Source of the DNA: Escherichia phage AV118
Strand: one strand, 5' to 3'
Length of the DNA: 64,000 nt
Sequence record: OR352948.1
This document shows positions 11,685 through 20,885 of this stretch, piece after piece. The position numbers were made by a program, and so were the translations under genes. The notes under the pieces were generated by a model. The model had not been told where the DNA came from and searched no databases. It saw only the letters and a list, made by a program, of their open reading frames with translations. Numbering within the stretch: position 1 is the first letter of the stretch; every line of letters starts with the position of its first letter.

Positions 11685-13522
11685 TATCCTAGCATCCAAT
11701 CTTTACGGAGTTCAGGGTCGTTACCCATGAGCATTTCAAATAGTTCTTTCCAATTTTCAGGAAGTTTAACTACGTCGTACACAGGGTTTTGAATCATTTC
11801 TTTATATTCATCCCGCTGAAGTGAGCCCAATCCCTTGATGTATCGAATACTATGCTTAGGCAGTGTATCTTTAACTTCTTCATACTCAGCTACAGTATAA
11901 AACCATTTTTGAGTTTTGCCAATTTGTGCAATAATTACAGGCGTTTTAACAAAGCGAATACGTCCTTGTTCAAACAATTCAGGCCAATTACTAAAGAAAG
12001 CAAGCAAAGCCGGATAAATACTTCCAAGGCCGTCATGATCGGCATCGGTCATAATTGCAATATTACGGTAGTTCGTATTCTCTGCCTTTTCACCAAGAAT
12101 AAGACCCGTGATAGCACAGATATCAAAGAGCTCTTTGTTCTTCATCATATCGACATATGACATACCCCAGCTATTCATCACCTTACCACGTAATGGGAAT
12201 CCGCCGTGTAGTTCACGGTCACGAACATCAATGAGATAACCAATTGCCGAATCACCTTCTGTTAAAAACAATGTCGTATCTGCATCTTTACCACATTGGT
12301 TAGCTTTAATATGCTTATGAACCTTAGCTTTAGTTGCCTTTTTAGCTGCTTTAGTTTCTGCAGCCTTTTCTGCTGCCAATTTACGAGCTAATGCGGCTTC
12401 AATTATAGGCATTAAAACTGCTTCAGAATTCAAAATATTTTTTGCCAATTTTTTTGTATCTAATTTAATATGCGTCCGAATTTCGCCATAAGGACTTGTT
12501 AAACGCTCTTTGGTTTGGGAATCAAAACGAAGGTTCTTCATTCCACGAACGAACATTAAGAGAGTGAGACATTCCTTGATGCGCGCTTTAGTCACGTCGA
12601 TTTTATATTTGCGTTTAATAGCCGGAATTAATTCTTCGCAAATGTCGTCCATCACACATTCAATGTGATGACCACCGTTTTTGGTATGGATGTTATTCAC
12701 ATAAGTTAAATGACGGAAGCCATCTGGTGACCGTCCAATGGCAATAGAGCATCCGTCTTGTTCTTGAATGATGGTCTCTTCATCAAATTGTTTAGCAAAC
12801 TTCTTAAAGTTACCTTGAATCTTTTTGCCATTAAATTTAAATTCAATACCAGGATAAACGACCGCCAATGTTTGGAGCCGGTCTATAGTAATATCTTGGT
12901 ATATTTTTTCAAATTGATTCATTTCAAAATGTGAGAAATCAGGAATAAACTCGACCTTAGTACCGTTGTTTTTAGACGGCTTAGATTTCCAAGAAATATT
13001 ATCAGCGTTATTAGAACAATTAACGGTCAATTCATTTTTACCATCTGAAGTAGTGCCAACAAAAGAGACAGAAAAAATATTTGTTAATGAAGAACCGACA
13101 CCGTTTTGTCCACCCGTAACACGTTCTTTGTCGTCACCAAAGTTGCCACCGGCTTTTGTACGTGTCCACGCCGCAACTGGTCCTGGAATTTCTTCTCCTT
13201 CAGGAGTAATAACTGTTTCTTGAGGAATACCTCGACCATTATCTTCAACAGTCACTTTATTAGAATTTAAATCAATACTAACGGAAATTTTATTAGCATA
13301 TTTGAAATTGGTTCGAATAGCTTCGTCTACTGAGTTGTCAATAATTTCATCAATTAATTTGAGAACACCTGCAACATATTTAACCTTTTTAAATTCACCG
13401 AATAGGAAACGTTCTTGTTCTTCATTGGCAACACTTCCAATATACATGCCAGGACGCTTCAAACAATGCTCTTTATCAGATAGCATTTCAATTTTATTAT
13501 CAATCATTAGATTTTCTCTCAA
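11684..13522 (-). CDS. 39: DNA topoisomerase II large subunit gp39 (GyrB-like ATPase + TOPRIM; contiguous 39+60 equivalent, 612 aa)
   Basis: GHKL ATPase and TOPRIM motifs (PGMYIG, EDNGRGIP, LTEGDSA, DADHDG). Confidence 0.9.
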   Translation of the reverse strand: MRENLMIDNKIEMLSDKEHCLKRPGMYIGSVANEEQERFLFGEFKKVKYVAGVLKLIDEIIDNSVDEAIRTNFKYANKISVSIDLNSNKVTVEDNGRGIPQETVITPEGEEIPGPVAAWTRTKAGGNFGDDKERVTGGQNGVGSSLTNIFSVSFVGTTSDGKNELTVNCSNNADNISWKSKPSKNNGTKVEFIPDFSHFEMNQFEKIYQDITIDRLQTLAVVYPGIEFKFNGKKIQGNFKKFAKQFDEETIIQEQDGCSIAIGRSPDGFRHLTYVNNIHTKNGGHHIECVMDDICEELIPAIKRKYKIDVTKARIKECLTLLMFVRGMKNLRFDSQTKERLTSPYGEIRTHIKLDTKKLAKNILNSEAVLMPIIEAALARKLAAEKAAETKAAKKATKAKVHKHIKANQCGKDADTTLFLTEGDSAIGYLIDVRDRELHGGFPLRGKVMNSWGMSYVDMMKNKELFDICAITGLILGEKAENTNYRNIAIMTDADHDGLGSIYPALLAFFSNWPELFEQGRIRFVKTPVIIAQIGKTQKWFYTVAEYEEVKDTLPKHSIRYIKGLGSLQRDEYKEMIQNPVYDVVKLPENWKELFEMLMGNDPELRKDWMLG

Positions 13523-14182
13523 ATTGCATGACTATATTTTTGTATGAACCTTCCGGAAATCCACGTTTAATGCTTTCTTTAGCAAATTTCCCAACCTTTG
13601 GTTTATCCAATTCTAACCATAATTTATATAAAGCAGATTCATATTCCCATACAGGACTTTTACGATTTTTAAGCCCACACTTTATAAGCACTTCCTTTGT
13701 ATGTTTCTTATTATAAAATGGATTGTTTTTGCCACTCATTGCTTTAGAATGTTCCGGGCGCTTAATTCCATACATCGGATTAAGATCGCCTTTCTTGATA
13801 ACGGATTGTAGTTCAATAGTTTCTTCAGAGTGATTGTGTCCATAAAATGGATTTAACTCTTTTGAAACATCCATACCAAAGCACCCATCGACTGTGGCAT
13901 AAGACATGTTGAAAAATTTTTCAGATTTAACCACATTATGCAATTTCTGGTAATACAACTCACAAAACGTCGCTTCTTCCCGTGTATCAAATTCGCCAAT
14001 AATACATGAATCAAATAAATGAGGATTATCTTTTATCTCTTTATCATAAATTTGTTTATATTTTTCGACTTTACCGTACCATGATAGTGATTGTTTGTAT
14101 GTTTATTAAGATAAGTAGACCCTATATAAAACGGTGGCAACTTATCGCCTGTGTATATTGTTAAGTATGTTATGTATTTCAT
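13500..14182 (-). pseudogene. GIY-YIG (Seg-like) homing endonuclease disrupted by -1 frameshift in an A5 run (plus-strand T-run 14061-14065)
   Basis: ATG at 14182 encodes MKYITYLTIYTGDKLPPFYIGST... (near-identical to N-terminus of intact Seg-like gene at 48570-49373) then stops after about 44 codons; downstream frame continues ...KYKQIYDKEIKDNPHLFDSC... into the NUMOD3-repeat ORF 13500-13958; restoring one A rejoins the frames. Confidence 0.55.
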
Positions 14183-14210
14183 AAAGGTATTCTATCATCC
14201 GAAATCTAAA

Positions 14211-14230
14211 GCAAAAAGGGCCGAAGCCCT
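14211..14230 (-). terminator. C(UUCG)G hairpin + U-run
   Basis: Plus caaaaa-agggc-cgaa-gccct. Confidence 0.45.
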
Positions 14231-14652
14231 TATTTAAATTTAATTTTCTGAAGTGCATCAATTGCAGCCAAACGCCCTTGTTCACTTTTAACTGTAATGA
14301 CCACATCACCTGATACGATCACCGAACCATCAACAAATTCTATAGAGCCTTTTTTGAAATCGACGGCTGTATCTGATTCAGGAACTTCTTCAAAGAATTT
14401 AAATTCTGCACCATAAAGCAGAATATCACCTTGCATACTAATGATTGTACGTCCAGGTCCATCGGTTTCAGCGGCAATCATTGAAACACCATAACCAATC
14501 ATCTCTTCTACAATAAAATCTCTTGATAATAAAACTGTATGCAGAGTAGTGTTAAGACGTTTACCAGTCGTATTAAGAATTCTCAAGAAATTATCTTCTT
14601 GTCCTTTGATAATACGATATTTCTTACCAACTTCAAAACCTTTAAAAGCCAT
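14230..14652 (-). CDS. hypothetical protein (140 aa)
   Basis: Minus-strand ORF. Confidence 0.45.
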   Translation of the reverse strand: MAFKGFEVGKKYRIIKGQEDNFLRILNTTGKRLNTTLHTVLLSRDFIVEEMIGYGVSMIAAETDGPGRTIISMQGDILLYGAEFKFFEEVPESDTAVDFKKGSIEFVDGSVIVSGDVVITVKSEQGRLAAIDALQKIKFK

Positions 14653-14654
14653 AA

Positions 14655-14834
14655 TTAACCCTTCTTAAGTAAGTCGTAAAAACCACCGTTCACATGTTTA
14701 GGAGCAGAAACCCGACGAGTAGACAGACGATGACATTCAGGGCAAACATCGTTTTCTCGTTCAGAAATTCTTTTAATTTTTTCATATTCATGACCACAAT
14801 CTTCAGATTGACATTTATAGTCGTATAACGGCAT
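14655..14834 (-). CDS. Zinc-ribbon protein (59 aa; Cx4C...CxxC), below ORF-track threshold
   Basis: ATG at 14834 shares TAATG overlap with upstream ORF stop; translation [37 protein letters not shown]...; fills an otherwise empty gap. Confidence 0.45.
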   Translation of the reverse strand: MPLYDYKCQSEDCGHEYEKIKRISERENDVCPECHRLSTRRVSAPKHVNGGFYDLLKKG

Positions 14835-15247
14835 TATTGTTCCTTAAAGTGAGCTTTCAACATTTGATACAAAGACCATGCCTGGTCGTTATTTTCGATA
14901 GTAATCGTCATCACCGGAAATTCAGACAATTCATCAAGTTCACCAGAATCTTGCTCTTCGGACGCTTGATATGGATTTCCAACTTCGTCAAAGAATTCTG
15001 CTTCATTCGTGGAGAGCCAGATAAAGTTTTCATCAAGGATATCACCGCCTGTTGCGTATCCAACCGTGCCGGTAGATGTCACAATTTTAGTAGGACGACC
15101 AAGATGGTCAACATCTAATACTTTAAATGGTTCCATGCCAAGACGTCGTGCATAAATCCCATTATCAGTGTGGTCTTTAATAAACTCTTCTTGGACACGT
15201 TTATCTTTAAATTGATACCACGAGTTAACGCAGAATTTATTAGCCAT
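14834..15247 (-). CDS. hypothetical acidic protein (137 aa from ATG at 15247)
   Basis: ATG at 15247 overlaps upstream stop (TAATG); ORF-track start at 15265 is upstream of it. Confidence 0.45.
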
Positions 15248-15474
15248 TAGTAAGTTTCCTTCCAATAAGTTGTACCATTTTCAGTGATTTCACGGAAGAT
15301 ACCATAGATAGGCATTTCATCGCCTAGTTTTTCGTAAACGTAAACCACTTCAGTGTAGCATAAAAATTCAGTCCAGTTTTTCTGTACAACAACTAAATCA
15401 GGATTAAACAGAACATCTTCAAACTCATCGATGTTTGAATCAGTAGTTACGTTTTTAATGATTTGACGTTTCAT
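15247..15474 (-). CDS. hypothetical protein (75 aa from ATG at 15474)
   Basis: ATG at 15474 with AAGAGGAG Shine-Dalgarno; the longer ORF-track form runs into the promoter. Confidence 0.45.
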
Positions 15475-15502
15475 AATATTCTCCTCTTGTTTTGATAGGT
15501 CT

Positions 15503-15532
15503 ATAGTATCATAGACCATAGTTGTTGTACAT
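15503..15532 (-). promoter_or_regulatory. Early-type promoter (-10 TACTAT, weak -35)
   Basis: Shares the gataggtctata -10-proximal motif with other promoters in window; approximate coordinates. Confidence 0.35.
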
Positions 15533-16056
15533 CATTTTAGCAAAATAAAATCAACTTGTTCTGCCAATGAACGTCTAAACATTAATTGACAACTTCCGAG
15601 GATGAAATCAGGTGCTTCATAGACCGCGATGTAGTATCCTTTAGCTTTCAAGAGTTCAACATCCACCTGGTCATCAAACCATGCATAAACCGCGTCAACA
15701 CTTTCAAATCCAAAATAGAACCCTTGAGCCCAATCTTCACTCAATTCAAATGTGTTCTCAATTCTATAATATCTTAAGATATTTTGTTCAAGGAGTTTGT
15801 CTTCATTTATTGTAGGACGATTAGGGACATTATAGTTGTCGCCGTGATGGTAGAAGTTACCCGAGATTATTCCATGCTTATCAAGGAACTCCCATGTTTC
15901 TTCAGAGTTGTCGGTGCCCGACCAACCGTATGGCGAACGAGGTTCTTTATTCCAAGAGGTTTCCCAAATTCTGACGGCTTTACCGTCTTCGATAGCAATT
16001 CCTGGTAATGATTCACGTTGAGTACAAAAACTACGTTCTACGCGGTAAACTAACAT
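15532..16056 (-). CDS. hypothetical protein (174 aa)
   Basis: Minus-strand ORF, ATG at 16056. Confidence 0.45.
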   Translation of the reverse strand: MLVYRVERSFCTQRESLPGIAIEDGKAVRIWETSWNKEPRSPYGWSGTDNSEETWEFLDKHGIISGNFYHHGDNYNVPNRPTINEDKLLEQNILRYYRIENTFELSEDWAQGFYFGFESVDAVYAWFDDQVDVELLKAKGYYIAVYEAPDFILGSCQLMFRRSLAEQVDFILLK

Positions 16057-16082
16057 ATTATTCTCCTCTGGTTGATATGGTT

Positions 16083-16111
16083 ATAATATCAAAACCAGAG
16101 GAGAAGTAAAC
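16083..16111 (-). promoter_or_regulatory. T4-early-type promoter (GTTTAC-N17-TATTAT) with -10 inside an 11-bp perfect inverted repeat (16063-16073 / 16093-16103)
   Basis: Read on minus strand. Confidence 0.5.
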
Positions 16112-16115
16112 AACT

Positions 16116-16535
16116 TTATGCAAAAGATGCTGGACAATATTTTTTGATTTGGAACTCAGGAACTACCATGAACTGTCCAGCAAAAACAATGTTATAAAGC
16201 TTGACGCCATCTTCAACCCATTGGTCCGAAATAAAACCAGCAACTTGATTCGTTGTCCATGGAGACCCATCAGTTGCGGCAGCAATAGTAAATTCATGGT
16301 CTTTTACAACTAAAACTGACCTGCACAGTTTCCATTTGAACGCTTTTTCTTCTGGTTCAATGAACTGGCTTGAGACGTAACCAATGTTACCATTAACATC
16401 TCGAACTTTAACTTCGTTACGTCCAAAAACCGGATCACTCACAGAAAGAACTTCAACCAACTTCCCGGCAACTTTAGAGCGAGAAGCAACAGATACATAT
16501 ACGTAATCACCTGTAGAGAGATTCACAATATTCAT
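16116..16535 (-). CDS. hypothetical protein, tandem paralogue A (139 aa)
   Basis: Shares RSK.AG.LVEV...FKW.LC...GFISDQWVEDG.KLYNIVF pattern with adjacent gene; AAGGA Shine-Dalgarno. Confidence 0.5.
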   Translation of the reverse strand: MNIVNLSTGDYVYVSVASRSKVAGKLVEVLSVSDPVFGRNEVKVRDVNGNIGYVSSQFIEPEEKAFKWKLCRSVLVVKDHEFTIAAATDGSPWTTNQVAGFISDQWVEDGVKLYNIVFAGQFMVVPEFQIKKYCPASFA

Positions 16536-16544
16536 AATAATTCC

Positions 16545-17000
16545 TTAAGCTTTACGAGGAGACACATAGCGAGTGATTTCAGATTCTTTAACAACTCGGA
16601 AGTCACCTAAGAATACAATATTGTATAACTTTTCACCATCTTCAACCCATTGGTCGCTAATGAAGCCACACATAGTATCAGTTTTGCTTGGATAACCGTA
16701 TTCATCGATGAAGTCAAATTCTTTATCAGTCTGGAATTCAACACCTTTACACAAGGCCCATTTGAACTGTACATTAGGTTCAGTAGAAGCAGATGGAGTG
16801 CTCACACGAGTTTCCAGGAATTTAGGACTTACGTAAGCGTACTGAGTATCCTGACGTCCAAAACTAGGAATGATTCGAACTTTAACTTCTTTAATACGTC
16901 CCATGCCATTTGTGCGAAGTCCGACAACTTCAACCAGACGACCTGCAGCTTTAGAACGAGAAGCTGTCGATACACGTTTAATTTCACCAATATTAATCAT
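16545..17000 (-). CDS. hypothetical protein, tandem paralogue B (151 aa from ATG at 17000)
   Basis: ATG at 17000; paralogous to 16116-16535. Confidence 0.5.
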   Translation of the reverse strand: MINIGEIKRVSTASRSKAAGRLVEVVGLRTNGMGRIKEVKVRIIPSFGRQDTQYAYVSPKFLETRVSTPSASTEPNVQFKWALCKGVEFQTDKEFDFIDEYGYPSKTDTMCGFISDQWVEDGEKLYNIVFLGDFRVVKESEITRYVSPRKA

Positions 17001-17030
17001 ATTTTTTCTCTCTTTGTTTAAGTTGAATTC

Positions 17031-17060
17031 ATTATACTCCAACCATCCTTGGTTGTAAAC
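17031..17060 (-). promoter_or_regulatory. T4-early-type promoter (GTTTAC-N18-TATAAT) with caacca/tggttg inverted repeat in spacer; 27-nt core repeated at 60056-60082
   Basis: Read on minus strand. Confidence 0.5.
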
Positions 17061-17065
17061 TGGTT

Positions 17066-17743
17066 TTATCGCTGTTTTACACTTAACGGGTCAGGATTCT
17101 CAGGGACATCTTCAAGGCCAAGCGCATAACGCTGAGCATATTTTAACATCAAAATATCTTTAGCACAATCATGAATACTATCATGGGCAACGAATCCTTT
17201 TAGCGTACCCATCGGTAATGGACACATACTTAATCCTCGTGTCAACGAGTAAGCTTCGATTGCTGTACGAATATCGCGTTGTGCCCAGAATTTAACCGGT
17301 TCTAATTTATCGGTATCAATCTCTGGTTCAAGAACACCTTCATCACGATAGAGGTCACGAATCAAATCGACCAATATCGGGAAGTCAAAGCTCATACCAC
17401 GGCACCACATCTGTGATTTCCATTGGTCAACTTTATTAGCTCGGCAATAGTCTAAAAAGATTTTAATGCCTTCAAGCGTAGTGACATCGTCTTCAGACGG
17501 GGCCAAGTTTTTACGTGCTTCAGCTGATTGTTCTTTCCACCATTTCATAGTGGATTTAGCGAAAACTCGCTTCCCTTTCTGAGAAGCTAAATTAAATTTA
17601 ATTCGCTTACCTCGTTGAACAAGTTCTTCAAATGATTCAACAACTTCAGGGTCGGAATTATATGCAATAACCGCAAGGTCAATAACAGCCGCTTTTGATG
17701 TATTGCCGAATGTTTCAAAATCTATAATAACATCAGTGCTCAT
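17066..17743 (-). CDS. dexA: Exonuclease A DexA (DEDD-type 3'-5' exonuclease, 225 aa)
   Basis: N-terminal IIDFET motif, size and position next to dda. Confidence 0.75.
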   Translation of the reverse strand: MSTDVIIDFETFGNTSKAAVIDLAVIAYNSDPEVVESFEELVQRGKRIKFNLASQKGKRVFAKSTMKWWKEQSAEARKNLAPSEDDVTTLEGIKIFLDYCRANKVDQWKSQMWCRGMSFDFPILVDLIRDLYRDEGVLEPEIDTDKLEPVKFWAQRDIRTAIEAYSLTRGLSMCPLPMGTLKGFVAHDSIHDCAKDILMLKYAQRYALGLEDVPENPDPLSVKQR

Positions 17744-17752
17744 AATTTTCTC

Positions 17753-19066
17753 TCAAATAAAATGGACGTCAAACCGACCACGAGTCGTGCCGACATACAA
17801 TAACTGTTTAGCTAATTCTGAATCAGCATAATGGATACACGGTGTATAAACAAAGGCCGTGTCAACAGACATACCCTGGGCCTTATGGAAGGTTGATACA
17901 GGTAGTGCCTTCACCTTAGTGAACATGCGTTTAGCATCCCAGAATTCGCTCCATGGGGCTTTACCATCTTTATTCCAAAATTTGTATGTTTCTGCGGTCT
18001 TAGCCAAAAACAAATTGAATTTATAAAGCTCTTCTTCAGAAGAAATAACCTTTATATCTTCGCGGATGTATTCTTCATCATCCCCATATGTTTCTACTGT
18101 AAGATTCCAGTATCGTATCATATATTCGCCCGAAACACCACGTGCTTTAACGAATGTAGACGTTTCTACAGCATCTCGAATACGAACGAATTGCCCATTA
18201 TTGAAAAGCATTTCGGTCATATTTTTACCATCTAGCTTATATGTCTTAGTAAATGGCTCTTGTAGAACAATGACTTCGTCTTTAATAAATGGTTTTTCTG
18301 TTTCAAGAAGTTTTCGGCGAATAATTGAATTTAACTTGTCCACCGACTTATTTGTGAATGCCATCATTCGATTTTCGAAAAGGTCTTCAGGAGTTTTAAC
18401 GACGTTAAAATAGTTCATCATATACGATTTAAGGTCTGTGTATCCATGAACACCGTGCCCATCAACTACTTTATCGTAAATCCATTTGCCATTACGAATA
18501 TCAGTCGCAACATCAATAATTGGTGCATTGCTACGTTTAACTTCTGTAAGGTTGCATTGCACGAAGTCTTTGTGAGTGAAGAAAGGACTTAGATACGCAG
18601 TTGATTCGCCTGGGTCTACCGGTCGAATCTGGCATCGGTCACCAATTCCAATTACTGTACACCATTTAGGGATACTAGCTAACATTATTTTAAACAGAGA
18701 ACGGTCGCACATTGACGCTTCATCAAATAACAGTACACGACACAAGGCTAAGTCGGGAACCTTTTTCTGTTCAAACAATACGTTTTCTTCGTATGTAGTT
18801 GGGTTGATTTTAAGAATGCTATGAATAGTCGATGCTTCTTGACCAGCAAGTTTGCTTAGAACCTTTTTAGCGGCATGTGTTGGTGCTGCTAAAATAATAC
18901 CTGATTCTCCAGAAGAAATAAGAGCTTCAACGATAAATCTAGTAAGGGTTGTTTTACCTGTACCGGCAGGCCCATTAATAGTTACGTGATGTTTCTTTTC
19001 TTTAATAGCTTTCATAACAACGTTGAAGGCGTTTTTCTGGCCTTCAGTCAAATCATCAAATGTCAT
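17753..19066 (-). CDS. dda: Dda DNA helicase (SF1, 437 aa)
   Basis: Walker A GPAGTGKTT, Walker B LLFDEASM; size as T4 Dda. Confidence 0.85.
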   Translation of the reverse strand: MTFDDLTEGQKNAFNVVMKAIKEKKHHVTINGPAGTGKTTLTRFIVEALISSGESGIILAAPTHAAKKVLSKLAGQEASTIHSILKINPTTYEENVLFEQKKVPDLALCRVLLFDEASMCDRSLFKIMLASIPKWCTVIGIGDRCQIRPVDPGESTAYLSPFFTHKDFVQCNLTEVKRSNAPIIDVATDIRNGKWIYDKVVDGHGVHGYTDLKSYMMNYFNVVKTPEDLFENRMMAFTNKSVDKLNSIIRRKLLETEKPFIKDEVIVLQEPFTKTYKLDGKNMTEMLFNNGQFVRIRDAVETSTFVKARGVSGEYMIRYWNLTVETYGDDEEYIREDIKVISSEEELYKFNLFLAKTAETYKFWNKDGKAPWSEFWDAKRMFTKVKALPVSTFHKAQGMSVDTAFVYTPCIHYADSELAKQLLYVGTTRGRFDVHFI

Positions 19067-19374
19067 CGTAAAGTCCCTGCAATTGGAATACTAACAATAC
19101 GGCCTGTGTCCAGGATTCGTTGATACAATCTTTGTGTCTCCGCATCTAGTTTAACGTGTTTCATTTCAAGCTTATTAAACCAGAACTTACGCGGAGTTTC
19201 GACCATTCTTAGAACTCCCATTTTTAAATCTGTTTTATACTGTGTTTTCAAAGTATCGAAAACTTTATCTGCAATATCCTTTCTAAAAAATACTGCAGGA
19301 CGATGCTCATCAAGTGGAACCGGGACAGTAAATCCTTCCATATCTCGATAAACTATTGCATATACATAAACCAT
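19063..19374 (-). CDS. hypothetical protein (103 aa)
   Basis: ATGA overlap with dda stop. Confidence 0.45.
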   Translation of the reverse strand: MVYVYAIVYRDMEGFTVPVPLDEHRPAVFFRKDIADKVFDTLKTQYKTDLKMGVLRMVETPRKFWFNKLEMKHVKLDAETQRLYQRILDTGRIVSIPIAGTLR

Positions 19375-19376
19375 AA

Positions 19377-20123
19377 TTAACCTTTAATCAGTTGGAATAA
19401 TGATGCGCTAAGTGGTAAGCCACGTTTCAATTTTAATTTACCAATGAAACCAATCTTTTCAAAACGTTGCAGACCTTGGATAACTTTATCATATGTATCG
19501 AAAAGCGATTCAGCGTCAGTTAATTTAGTTTTAGTTTTCCAGTCAGAGCCTTTAAGAAGAACGTTGAGTTTAGTAAGTTCATGGCCTTCTGCTTGATGTG
19601 AGCCATTAATGCGTGCTTTCAAAGCAACAATTCTAAGTTTAGACTCATTAGATAAAGGTTGATTTTTCATCATGTTCGCCATATGCTTAACACGGTTTTC
19701 ACGTTTTGCTCGGATTTTTAAAATAGTACCATAAACCTTTTTAATTTGGGCCCATTTCTTCTCGTCGAGATTAAGTTTCTCTACTTTACGAGCAGAAGGA
19801 TTAGCGATACGTCTTGCAATAGCATCACGTTTCTCAATAAGTTCTTCTAATGTTAAATCAGAACGAGCCGTGTTATATTTTTTCTTAACTGGGATAACAT
19901 TACCTTTAATGTAGCCTATATCATTATTAAAACGTTCTAAGGATAATTTCTCACCTTCAACAGAGTTATTAAAAGATTCACCTGAGTAAGCGCAGACCTT
20001 TTGATCAAGAATGTTTTTAAGGTAATTAAAGTCTAAGTTAAAATCCTTAGAGCGTCTCTTCGCAGAAGCTCTGGTGTGGTCAAGACGACGATTGATTTTG
20101 TTAATTTTATTATTTGATAACAT
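19377..20123 (-). CDS. hypothetical basic protein (248 aa); positional analogue of T4 Srd
   Basis: Size/position between dda and modA; GAGGA Shine-Dalgarno. Confidence 0.4.
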   Translation of the reverse strand: MLSNNKINKINRRLDHTRASAKRRSKDFNLDFNYLKNILDQKVCAYSGESFNNSVEGEKLSLERFNNDIGYIKGNVIPVKKKYNTARSDLTLEELIEKRDAIARRIANPSARKVEKLNLDEKKWAQIKKVYGTILKIRAKRENRVKHMANMMKNQPLSNESKLRIVALKARINGSHQAEGHELTKLNVLLKGSDWKTKTKLTDAESLFDTYDKVIQGLQRFEKIGFIGKLKLKRGLPLSASLFQLIKG

Positions 20124-20276
20124 AATATTTTCCTCTGTCTTACGGACGTTAAGGTCATTTAGCTGATAAGCTTATAATATCATGCCCTCAGGTAGTGTAC
20201 ACTCTTTTTTCGTAAAATGCTTTAATTTTTTATGTGTTATAATGGTTCTGAGTTCCATCCGGTTATTCCAATTCAG

Positions 20277-20885
20277 TCAGTAACTGACAATAGACAGATT
20301 CCAGATTGTATAACGTCCATCTTGAATAATAGAATCTACACGCAGTGTAGTCCCTATAGGGAGCATAAATTCACATTCGTCAGATATAAGTCTAGCATTA
20401 GACCGTCTTGTCGCTTCAGGGAAAGCTCCATTGAACTCACAAGATGGCGCAGCCAGAATCATGTTAAGCATATGTTCACGGAAGTTGAAAGCAAATGGTG
20501 CATCTTTGATGCAGAACATATTAAATGTTCCGTAAAAATTATACGAAGCAAAGTTACGTGCTACACCGAACACTGGACTGAAGCTCATTACTCTGTCAAA
20601 TTTAATAATACTACCAATGCCTTTATCATCAAGTGTGGCCATAGTTTTCTTAGAGATTCCACGATACATTGTCTCAGGAACAGAAGACGTCCAATTTCTA
20701 CGAACGATTGAACTTAACTCCTGTTGAATACAGTCTGGCTTGTTTTCCATACACTGCCAAAGGATGCTTTGTTCATTATCGTTGAATTGACTATCAATTT
20801 CGTACTGCAATACATCTTGATATTCGGGGTTTTGAGCACGACGAACCATTTCTTCAATTTCACACTCGTTATACGGCATAAACAT
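20277..20885 (-). CDS. modA: ADP-ribosyltransferase, ModA-like (202 aa)
   Basis: Arg (YRG) and Glu-x-Glu elements of ADP-ribosyltransferase fold; tandem with paralogue; position as T4 modA. Confidence 0.55.
   Translation of the reverse strand: MFMPYNECEIEEMVRRAQNPEYQDVLQYEIDSQFNDNEQSILWQCMENKPDCIQQELSSIVRRNWTSSVPETMYRGISKKTMATLDDKGIGSIIKFDRVMSFSPVFGVARNFASYNFYGTFNMFCIKDAPFAFNFREHMLNMILAAPSCEFNGAFPEATRRSNARLISDECEFMLPIGTTLRVDSIIQDGRYTIWNLSIVSY

Follow-up and report, generated by a model that had tools for sequence, protein, structure and literature searches.

The window, that is, the whole 64,000-nucleotide stretch of Escherichia phage AV118 DNA (OR352948.1) that was analysed, contains two adjacent genes encoding proteins of 139 and 151 amino acids, which are referred to here as gene A and gene B. 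The order of transcription on the minus strand is dda, dexA, gene B and gene A, and genes B and A are separated by a spacer of 9 nt (Table 1). The initial annotation had placed the pair upstream of dexA, which is correct in plus-strand coordinates only; because the genes lie on the minus strand, the pair is located downstream of dexA in transcription. The plus-strand open reading frames over 16116-17000 are short antisense readings without support. When the region 15500-17800 was compared with other phage records, it showed a single mismatch to Escherichia phage AV115 (OR352945, genus Mosigvirus), and the window is 99.5% identical to AV115 across an 8.3-kb stretch; about 280 T4-like phage records also match at lower identity. 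The phage of the window is a Mosigvirus, an RB69-type T4-like phage. The sole nucleotide differing from AV115 within 15500-17800 is position 16799, an Ala to Thr change in the disordered linker of gene B.

Table 1. Features of the motB locus in the window, and chimeric motB genes on metagenome contigs.
Feature	Coordinates	Strand	Description
dda	19066-17753	minus	upstream of genes B and A in transcription
dexA	17743-17066	minus	upstream of genes B and A in transcription; stop at 17066
Early-type sigma-70 promoter (consensus match)	17031..17059	minus	TTTACA-17 nt-TATAAT, after the dexA stop (17066) and before the gene B start
Shine-Dalgarno-like GAGAG	17008..17012	minus	8 nt before the gene B ATG
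Gene B (motB)	16545-17000 (read 17000 to 16545)	minus	151 aa, ATG at 17000
Shine-Dalgarno AAGGA	16542..16546	minus	overlaps the gene B TAA stop (16545-16547), 6 nt before the gene A ATG
Gene A (MotB-like)	16116-16535 (read 16535 to 16116)	minus	139 aa
PeSL-like cassette, downstream module boundary	16057..16112	minus	promoter-like site in an 18-bp hairpin
174-aa motB.2-like gene	16056-15532	minus	downstream of gene A
cef, goF, 39.2, ORF005c homologue	beyond the 174-aa gene		further downstream in transcription
Chimeric single-copy MotB genes	L006 1373-1894; L007 3001-3492; L008 2199-2690; L009 37-528		metagenome contigs

The two genes had been proposed to be tandem paralogues, and the alignment bears this out. 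In a pairwise BLASTP comparison the proteins share 43% identity over 145 columns with an E value of 8e-32, far past chance, and the identical residues comprise 25 of 54 positions in the N-terminal domain (NTD) and 37 of 73 in the C-terminal domain (CTD). The motifs quoted for the pair, SRSK.AG.LVEV, FKW.LC and GFISDQWVEDG.KLYNIVF, were all found. When each protein was searched against the whole window by tblastn, only the other copy was matched, with E values of about 1e-27, and the MotB-family HMM detected no open reading frame besides A and B in the six-frame translation of the window.

The initial annotation had regarded the function of the pair as unknown, and this does not hold, as both proteins belong to the MotB family. 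The Pfam profile PF17613 (motB, modifier of transcription) matches gene B with 131.1 bits over profile positions 2-157 of 162 and gene A with 79.3 bits, both passing the gathering cut-off of 25 bits, and phrog_1671 (MotB-like transcriptional regulator) matches both over their full length with E values of 2e-64 and 2e-51 for B and A, respectively. Gene B is 48% identical to T4 MotB (E 3e-44) in an end-to-end alignment that is colinear from the first residue, and the two share the N-terminus MI(I)NIGE, SRSKAAG(K/R)LVEV, FKW.L and G(F/Y)I(S/T)DQWVEDG.KLYN. Both are early-region genes located between dexA and cef, and both have a predicted KOW-like NTD, a linker and a beta-barrel CTD, although gene B is 11 aa shorter and has a shorter linker. 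Gene A is 38% identical to T4 MotB. Its core keeps the SRSKxAG and GFISDxWVEDGxKLYN motifs, and 43 alignment positions are at least 90% conserved both in the A type and in all other MotBs, with only 8 positions fixed differently. On sequence grounds, gene B is the orthologue of T4 MotB and gene A is the orthologue of RB69ORF010c, a MotB-like paralogue. RB69ORF010c (88% identity) and the JS09_0170 'MotB-like protein' (98% identity) are both 139 aa long, start 9 nt after motB and show no substantive difference from gene A. Hence the duplication itself is not new, since RB69ORF010c has been annotated as 'similar to motB' and the JS09 gene as 'MotB-like', and RB69 is known to carry two motB copies (Patterson-West et al. 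2021, PMC7827196). No NCBIfam model matched A, B or the 174-aa neighbour, a PDB sequence search with gene B gave no match up to an E value of 1, so that no family member with a solved structure came up by sequence, and Rfam gave nothing at the gathering score over 13000-20500.

A second protein family of this region shares part of its sequence with the pair. T4 MotB.1 and the long RB69-type MotB.1 (JS09_0168) have only the W(V/I)TDQWIEDG..L.NVV core in common with A and B, with local matches of 30 aa at E values of about 1e-9 to 1e-10. The alignment of A and B to MotB.1 is confined to the C-terminal 30-110 residues, the phrog_2333 match in the pair is restricted to residues 95-142, and the NTDs of both proteins align to the MotB NTD. 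The NTD of MotB.1 is LSm-like and unrelated to that of MotB (PMC12152347). [quoted passage not shown] A second paralogue pair of this early region is formed by goF and the RB69ORF005c homologue, at 14230-14652 and 14834-15247 on the minus strand, which match phrog_622 with E values of 5e-38 and 7e-19; proteins of the goF/ORF005c type belong to an LSm-like family according to Kim et al. 2025 (PMC12152347). The 174-aa gene downstream of gene A is labelled 'transcriptional regulator' in AV115, yet its sequence is unrelated to MotB. This motB.2 homologue is 34% identical to T4 MotB.2 and matches phrog_1106 (unknown function), with no match in Pfam or NCBIfam, and its 'regulator' label looks like an annotation carry-over from the gene name.

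Structure prediction was among the checks proposed for the pair, and AlphaFold2 with a 58-sequence alignment of the MotB family as input yielded confident all-beta two-barrel models for both proteins. The gene B model had a mean pLDDT of 85 and a pTM of 0.49, with residues 66-75 below 50. In this prediction an N-terminal KOW/SH3-like barrel spans about residues 1-60 and a beta-barrel forms the C-terminal part at about 79-146, the two being joined by a disordered linker at about 62-78. The gene A model had a mean pLDDT of 88.5 and a pTM of 0.75, and no disordered segment was predicted. Both models thus display the two-domain MotB architecture, an N-terminal KOW/SH3-like domain followed by a C-terminal beta-barrel carrying G(F/Y)I(S/T)DQWVEDG.KLYN, and T4 MotB has likewise been described as a KOW NTD with a beta-barrel CTD (PMC7827196). 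In these predictions a flexible tether connects the two barrels of B, and in A the same pair of barrels is packed together. When the models were compared with viral models using Foldseek, the only matches were T4-like phage proteins named MotB or "KOW domain". The KOW-like barrel raises the alternative that one of the proteins, or both, would target RNA or the transcription or translation machinery in the manner of NusG/Spt5 or ribosomal KOW proteins, instead of coating DNA; the point in its favour is a fold resemblance to a very widespread barrel, and we regard this alternative as improbable.

The two proteins also differ in several features. Gene A has a shorter NTD loop and lacks both the flexible linker and the Lys-rich loop (KDGKSKPQ in T4 MotB). 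The pI of A is near-neutral (5.8), whereas that of B is 8.85. The missing Lys-rich loop and linker and the near-neutral charge hint at an altered DNA affinity of A, which could be weaker or absent. We set the pI difference aside as weak evidence for a loss of DNA binding in A, since many single-copy MotB orthologues have pI values of 5-6.5.

The expression signals agree with those previously proposed, namely a Shine-Dalgarno sequence for each gene and a dedicated early promoter for the upstream one. The promoter between dexA and gene B, an unmapped consensus match, agrees with the consensus at 11 of 12 positions and was the top match in the 6.5 kb scanned. In JS09 and RB69, nearly identical -35, spacer and -10 sequences stand ahead of motB.1, immediately after dexA. 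The sequence following the -10 element of the window's promoter matches that of the second, motB-proximal promoter copy of JS09. No promoter-like site was found between genes B and A in the scan of 6.5 kb, and the site upstream of gene B is the only one placed to drive the B-A pair. The gene B leader AACAAAGAGAGAAAAA(T/A)TATG is conserved in RB69, RB27, ATK48 and PNJ-6. A longer, 165-aa form of gene B initiated at a TTG at 17042 was rejected, since this TTG is located 5' of the -10 hexamer and T4 MotB aligns with gene B from the ATG at 17000 onwards. At the boundary between the two genes, the eight phages compared, among them the Tequatrovirus RB27, all share one stop/Shine-Dalgarno/start junction, CGTAAAGCTTAAGGAATTATTATG, which is invariant despite synonymous divergence of up to 0.2-0.7 in the flanking coding sequence. 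The layout of this junction is compatible with translational coupling of A to B.

The flanks of the module were compared with PeSL elements, which consist of a strong sigma-70-like early promoter and a stable stem-loop, are repeated in hyperplastic regions and act as recombination points (PMC2839356, PMC4122927). On the downstream side, between gene A and the 174-aa gene, a promoter-like site GTTTAC-17-TATTAT (16110..16083, minus strand) lies inside the 18-bp hairpin, which has a folding energy of -24.5 kcal/mol and a z value of -5.3, with none of 200 shuffles as stable, and this cassette is kept in seven of eight phages. The 3' arm of the hairpin covers GAGGAG, the Shine-Dalgarno sequence of the 174-aa gene. 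This GAGGAG would be masked in read-through transcripts and left free in those started at the inner promoter, and the hairpin may gate the translation of the 174-aa gene by the promoter of origin. On the upstream side, a stem-loop in the dexA-motB promoter was considered and rejected: its stem has 6 bp and folds no better than shuffles (z -0.44), yet this promoter lies exactly at a deletion junction. JS09, RB69 and most relatives carry motB.1 between dexA and motB, a segment of about 560 bp, and the window lacks it at 17001-17065. When 17001-17065 was compared with 4490-5140 of L002 and 1400-2050 of L004, the deletion junction was located inside the promoter sequence CCAAGGA(T/C)GG(T/A)TGGAGTATAAT (that is, CCAAGGATGG(T/A)TGGAGTATAAT), a sequence that JS09 carries in duplicate, once on either side of motB.1, and the promoter copy of the window is a hybrid of both JS09 copies. 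As read from these sequences, motB.1 disappeared through recombination between two copies of a promoter cassette, which in JS09 and RB69 are found on either side of this gene, and the hybrid promoter agrees with the PeSL-mediated deletions of T4-type phages (PMC2839356, PMC4122927). In RB69, motB.1 (132 aa) and the 29-aa RB69ORF012c (1482-1978 of L004) look like a single MotB.1 gene broken up by indels in comparison with the intact 164-aa gene of JS09. The RB69 29-aa peptide looks like the frameshifted C-terminus of RB69 motB.1, and the split would explain why the MotB phylogeny in the literature has an orphan category named '29 aa peptide'.

We then examined the distribution of the pair, which had been suggested as a further check, by tblastn surveys against 50,697 phage records, and the pair is present in about 200 of about 770 MotB-encoding records. 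The search with gene A gave 207 records of at least 80% identity, followed by a gap, and the other 566 records were all below 60% (the highest was about 41% in the listed sample) and stem from other phages, which have one MotB. Across the 207 phage records and many metagenome clusters, the A type keeps at least 83% identity. The search with gene B gave 201 records of at least 60% identity and 559 below. Among the matches listed, records of the A or B type each show two matching places and records of other types show one; therefore the A type and the B type travel together, in about 27% of the MotB-encoding records. The T4 genome has no second motB copy in this survey. The carriers are mostly Mosigvirus and also include Tequatrovirus members such as RB27, in which the A type directly follows motB within a T4-like surrounding gene order. 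The order dda-dexA-(motB.1)-motB-motB-like-motB.2-cef-goF was found in AV115, JS09, RB69, phiE142, LF82-1, ATK48 and PNJ-6. T4 has the order dexA-motB.2-motB.1-motB-cef, while that of the window is dexA-motB-motB-like-motB.2-cef. The synteny with T4, RB69, JS09 and RB27, together with the early-type promoter consensus upstream, identifies the pair as early genes of the dexA-cef hyperplastic region.

The A type, the B type, the T4 type and a 163/183-aa type are roughly equidistant from each other (43-57% identity), and the neighbour-joining tree of MotBs is star-like with four deep groups, from which we infer that the duplication, or the gain of a second allele, is old. A recent in-situ duplication was rejected, as the A-B identity of 47% is similar to that of A with MotBs of other lineages (43-46%) and the tree is star-like. 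Gene A would accordingly be an old, diverged paralogue that always accompanies a B-type motB. When we calculated pairwise dN/dS values by the Nei-Gojobori method, they were about 0.14 for gene A (8 phages) and about 0.22 for gene B (6 phages). Both genes are under purifying selection, which is slightly stronger on A and speaks against A being a decaying copy. It might be argued that gene A is a redundant duplicate heading for loss and that only B is functional, given that the hyperplastic region containing MotB is dispensable (PMC7827196), that about 73% of the MotB-encoding phage records are single-copy and that single chimeric genes replace the pair in some metagenomic contigs. We consider this very unlikely in view of the dN/dS of A being below that of B, the high identity over the 207 records, the invariant Shine-Dalgarno/start junction of gene A, its confident AlphaFold2 model and an A-type open reading frame that is intact and 139 aa long in every cluster seen except one (145 aa).

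It has been known that T4 MotB binds DNA, is toxic in E. coli, increases the burst size 2-fold and co-purifies with H-NS and StpA (PMC6070864). It alters the footprint of H-NS on DNA, and 75 host genes are up-regulated, about one third of which are in the H-NS regulon (PMC7827196). The protein is made early and in abundance, and its tight binding to DNA, both unmodified and glucosyl-hmC, does not depend on sequence (PMC6070864, PMC7827196). According to Son et al. 2021, as cited in PMC12449154 and PMC13096335, MotB coats and compacts both genomes and relieves H-NS silencing. Knock-down of motB barely changes the T4 transcriptome (PMC6070864), and the physiological role of T4 MotB is only partly settled. 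By orthology with T4 MotB, gene B would be made abundantly from about 1 min after infection, and its product would bind host and modified phage DNA tightly without sequence specificity and change the placement of H-NS and StpA on DNA. In this way, H-NS-silenced genes would be de-repressed and the burst size improved. A point against this transfer is that B and T4 MotB share no more than 48% of their residues. Because gene A keeps the 43 conserved core residues of the family, it is expected to have the same basic activity, nucleic-acid binding via SH3-like/KOW barrels, in a compact, linker-less form. Gene A would be co-expressed with B, its translation is probably coupled to that of B, and it is probably sub-functionalised; it might join B on DNA as a partner or modulate it there, or might prefer another nucleic acid or nucleoid protein.

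The pair had also been put forward as a candidate for host takeover or anti-defence, and the general idea of an early host-takeover role stands, but no support for anti-defence was found beyond H-NS antagonism. A dedicated anti-defence module directed against a specific immune system and unconnected with nucleoid proteins would suit the location in an immediate-early hyperplastic region rich in accessory genes, as well as the patchy presence among T4-like phages. Membership in the MotB family indicates a different, experimentally supported activity, however, and antagonism of H-NS is counter-silencing, not inhibition of a specific immune system; we therefore give such a module hardly any credence. 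T7 gp5.5, T4 Arn and LUZ24 gp4 have a presumed target in common with MotB, the relief of silencing by the H-NS family (PMC7827196; PMC12449154), but there is no kinship in sequence or mechanism, since these proteins bind H-NS directly or mimic DNA while MotB itself binds DNA. As the best explanation of the locus as a whole, including a MotB-like function, we suggest that motB and the motB-like gene most probably constitute a fixed bicistronic early module.

We also observed single-copy MotBs of mixed type on metagenome contigs. First, P0003 combines a B-type NTD with an A-type CTD and is directly followed by cef. Second, P0026 combines a T4-type NTD with an A-type CTD. Third, P0009 is of the B type up to GFISDQWVEDG and then has an A-type tail. 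The junctions of the chimeras are at FKW(K)LC or GFISDQWVEDG, and each chimera is the only full-length MotB before cef in its contig. These sequences suggest that the chimeras are products of unequal crossing-over between tandem paralogues. It is possible, but we put it forward only tentatively and think it rather doubtful, that the A type is a specialised, compact, linker-less MotB, translationally coupled to B, which would form mixed assemblies with MotB on DNA or act on another nucleoid-protein or nucleic-acid target, and that the conserved segments FKW.LC and GFISDQWVEDG also serve as hot spots at which unequal crossing-over repeatedly exchanges N- and C-terminal domains of the paralogues and yields chimeric MotBs such as P0003, P0009 and P0026. 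If this is true, the locus would represent a small natural domain-shuffling system for a phage nucleoid-remodelling protein.

The discovery value of these results is small, because both genes already bear the names MotB and MotB-like in public records and the presence of two copies in RB69 has been published. For the MotB field, the lead is that about one quarter of the T4-like phages that encode MotB have a second copy under constraint and co-expressed with the first. The natural chimeras mark swappable domains, and a comparison of A, B and the chimeras could separate the domain that binds DNA from that responsible for the effect on H-NS.
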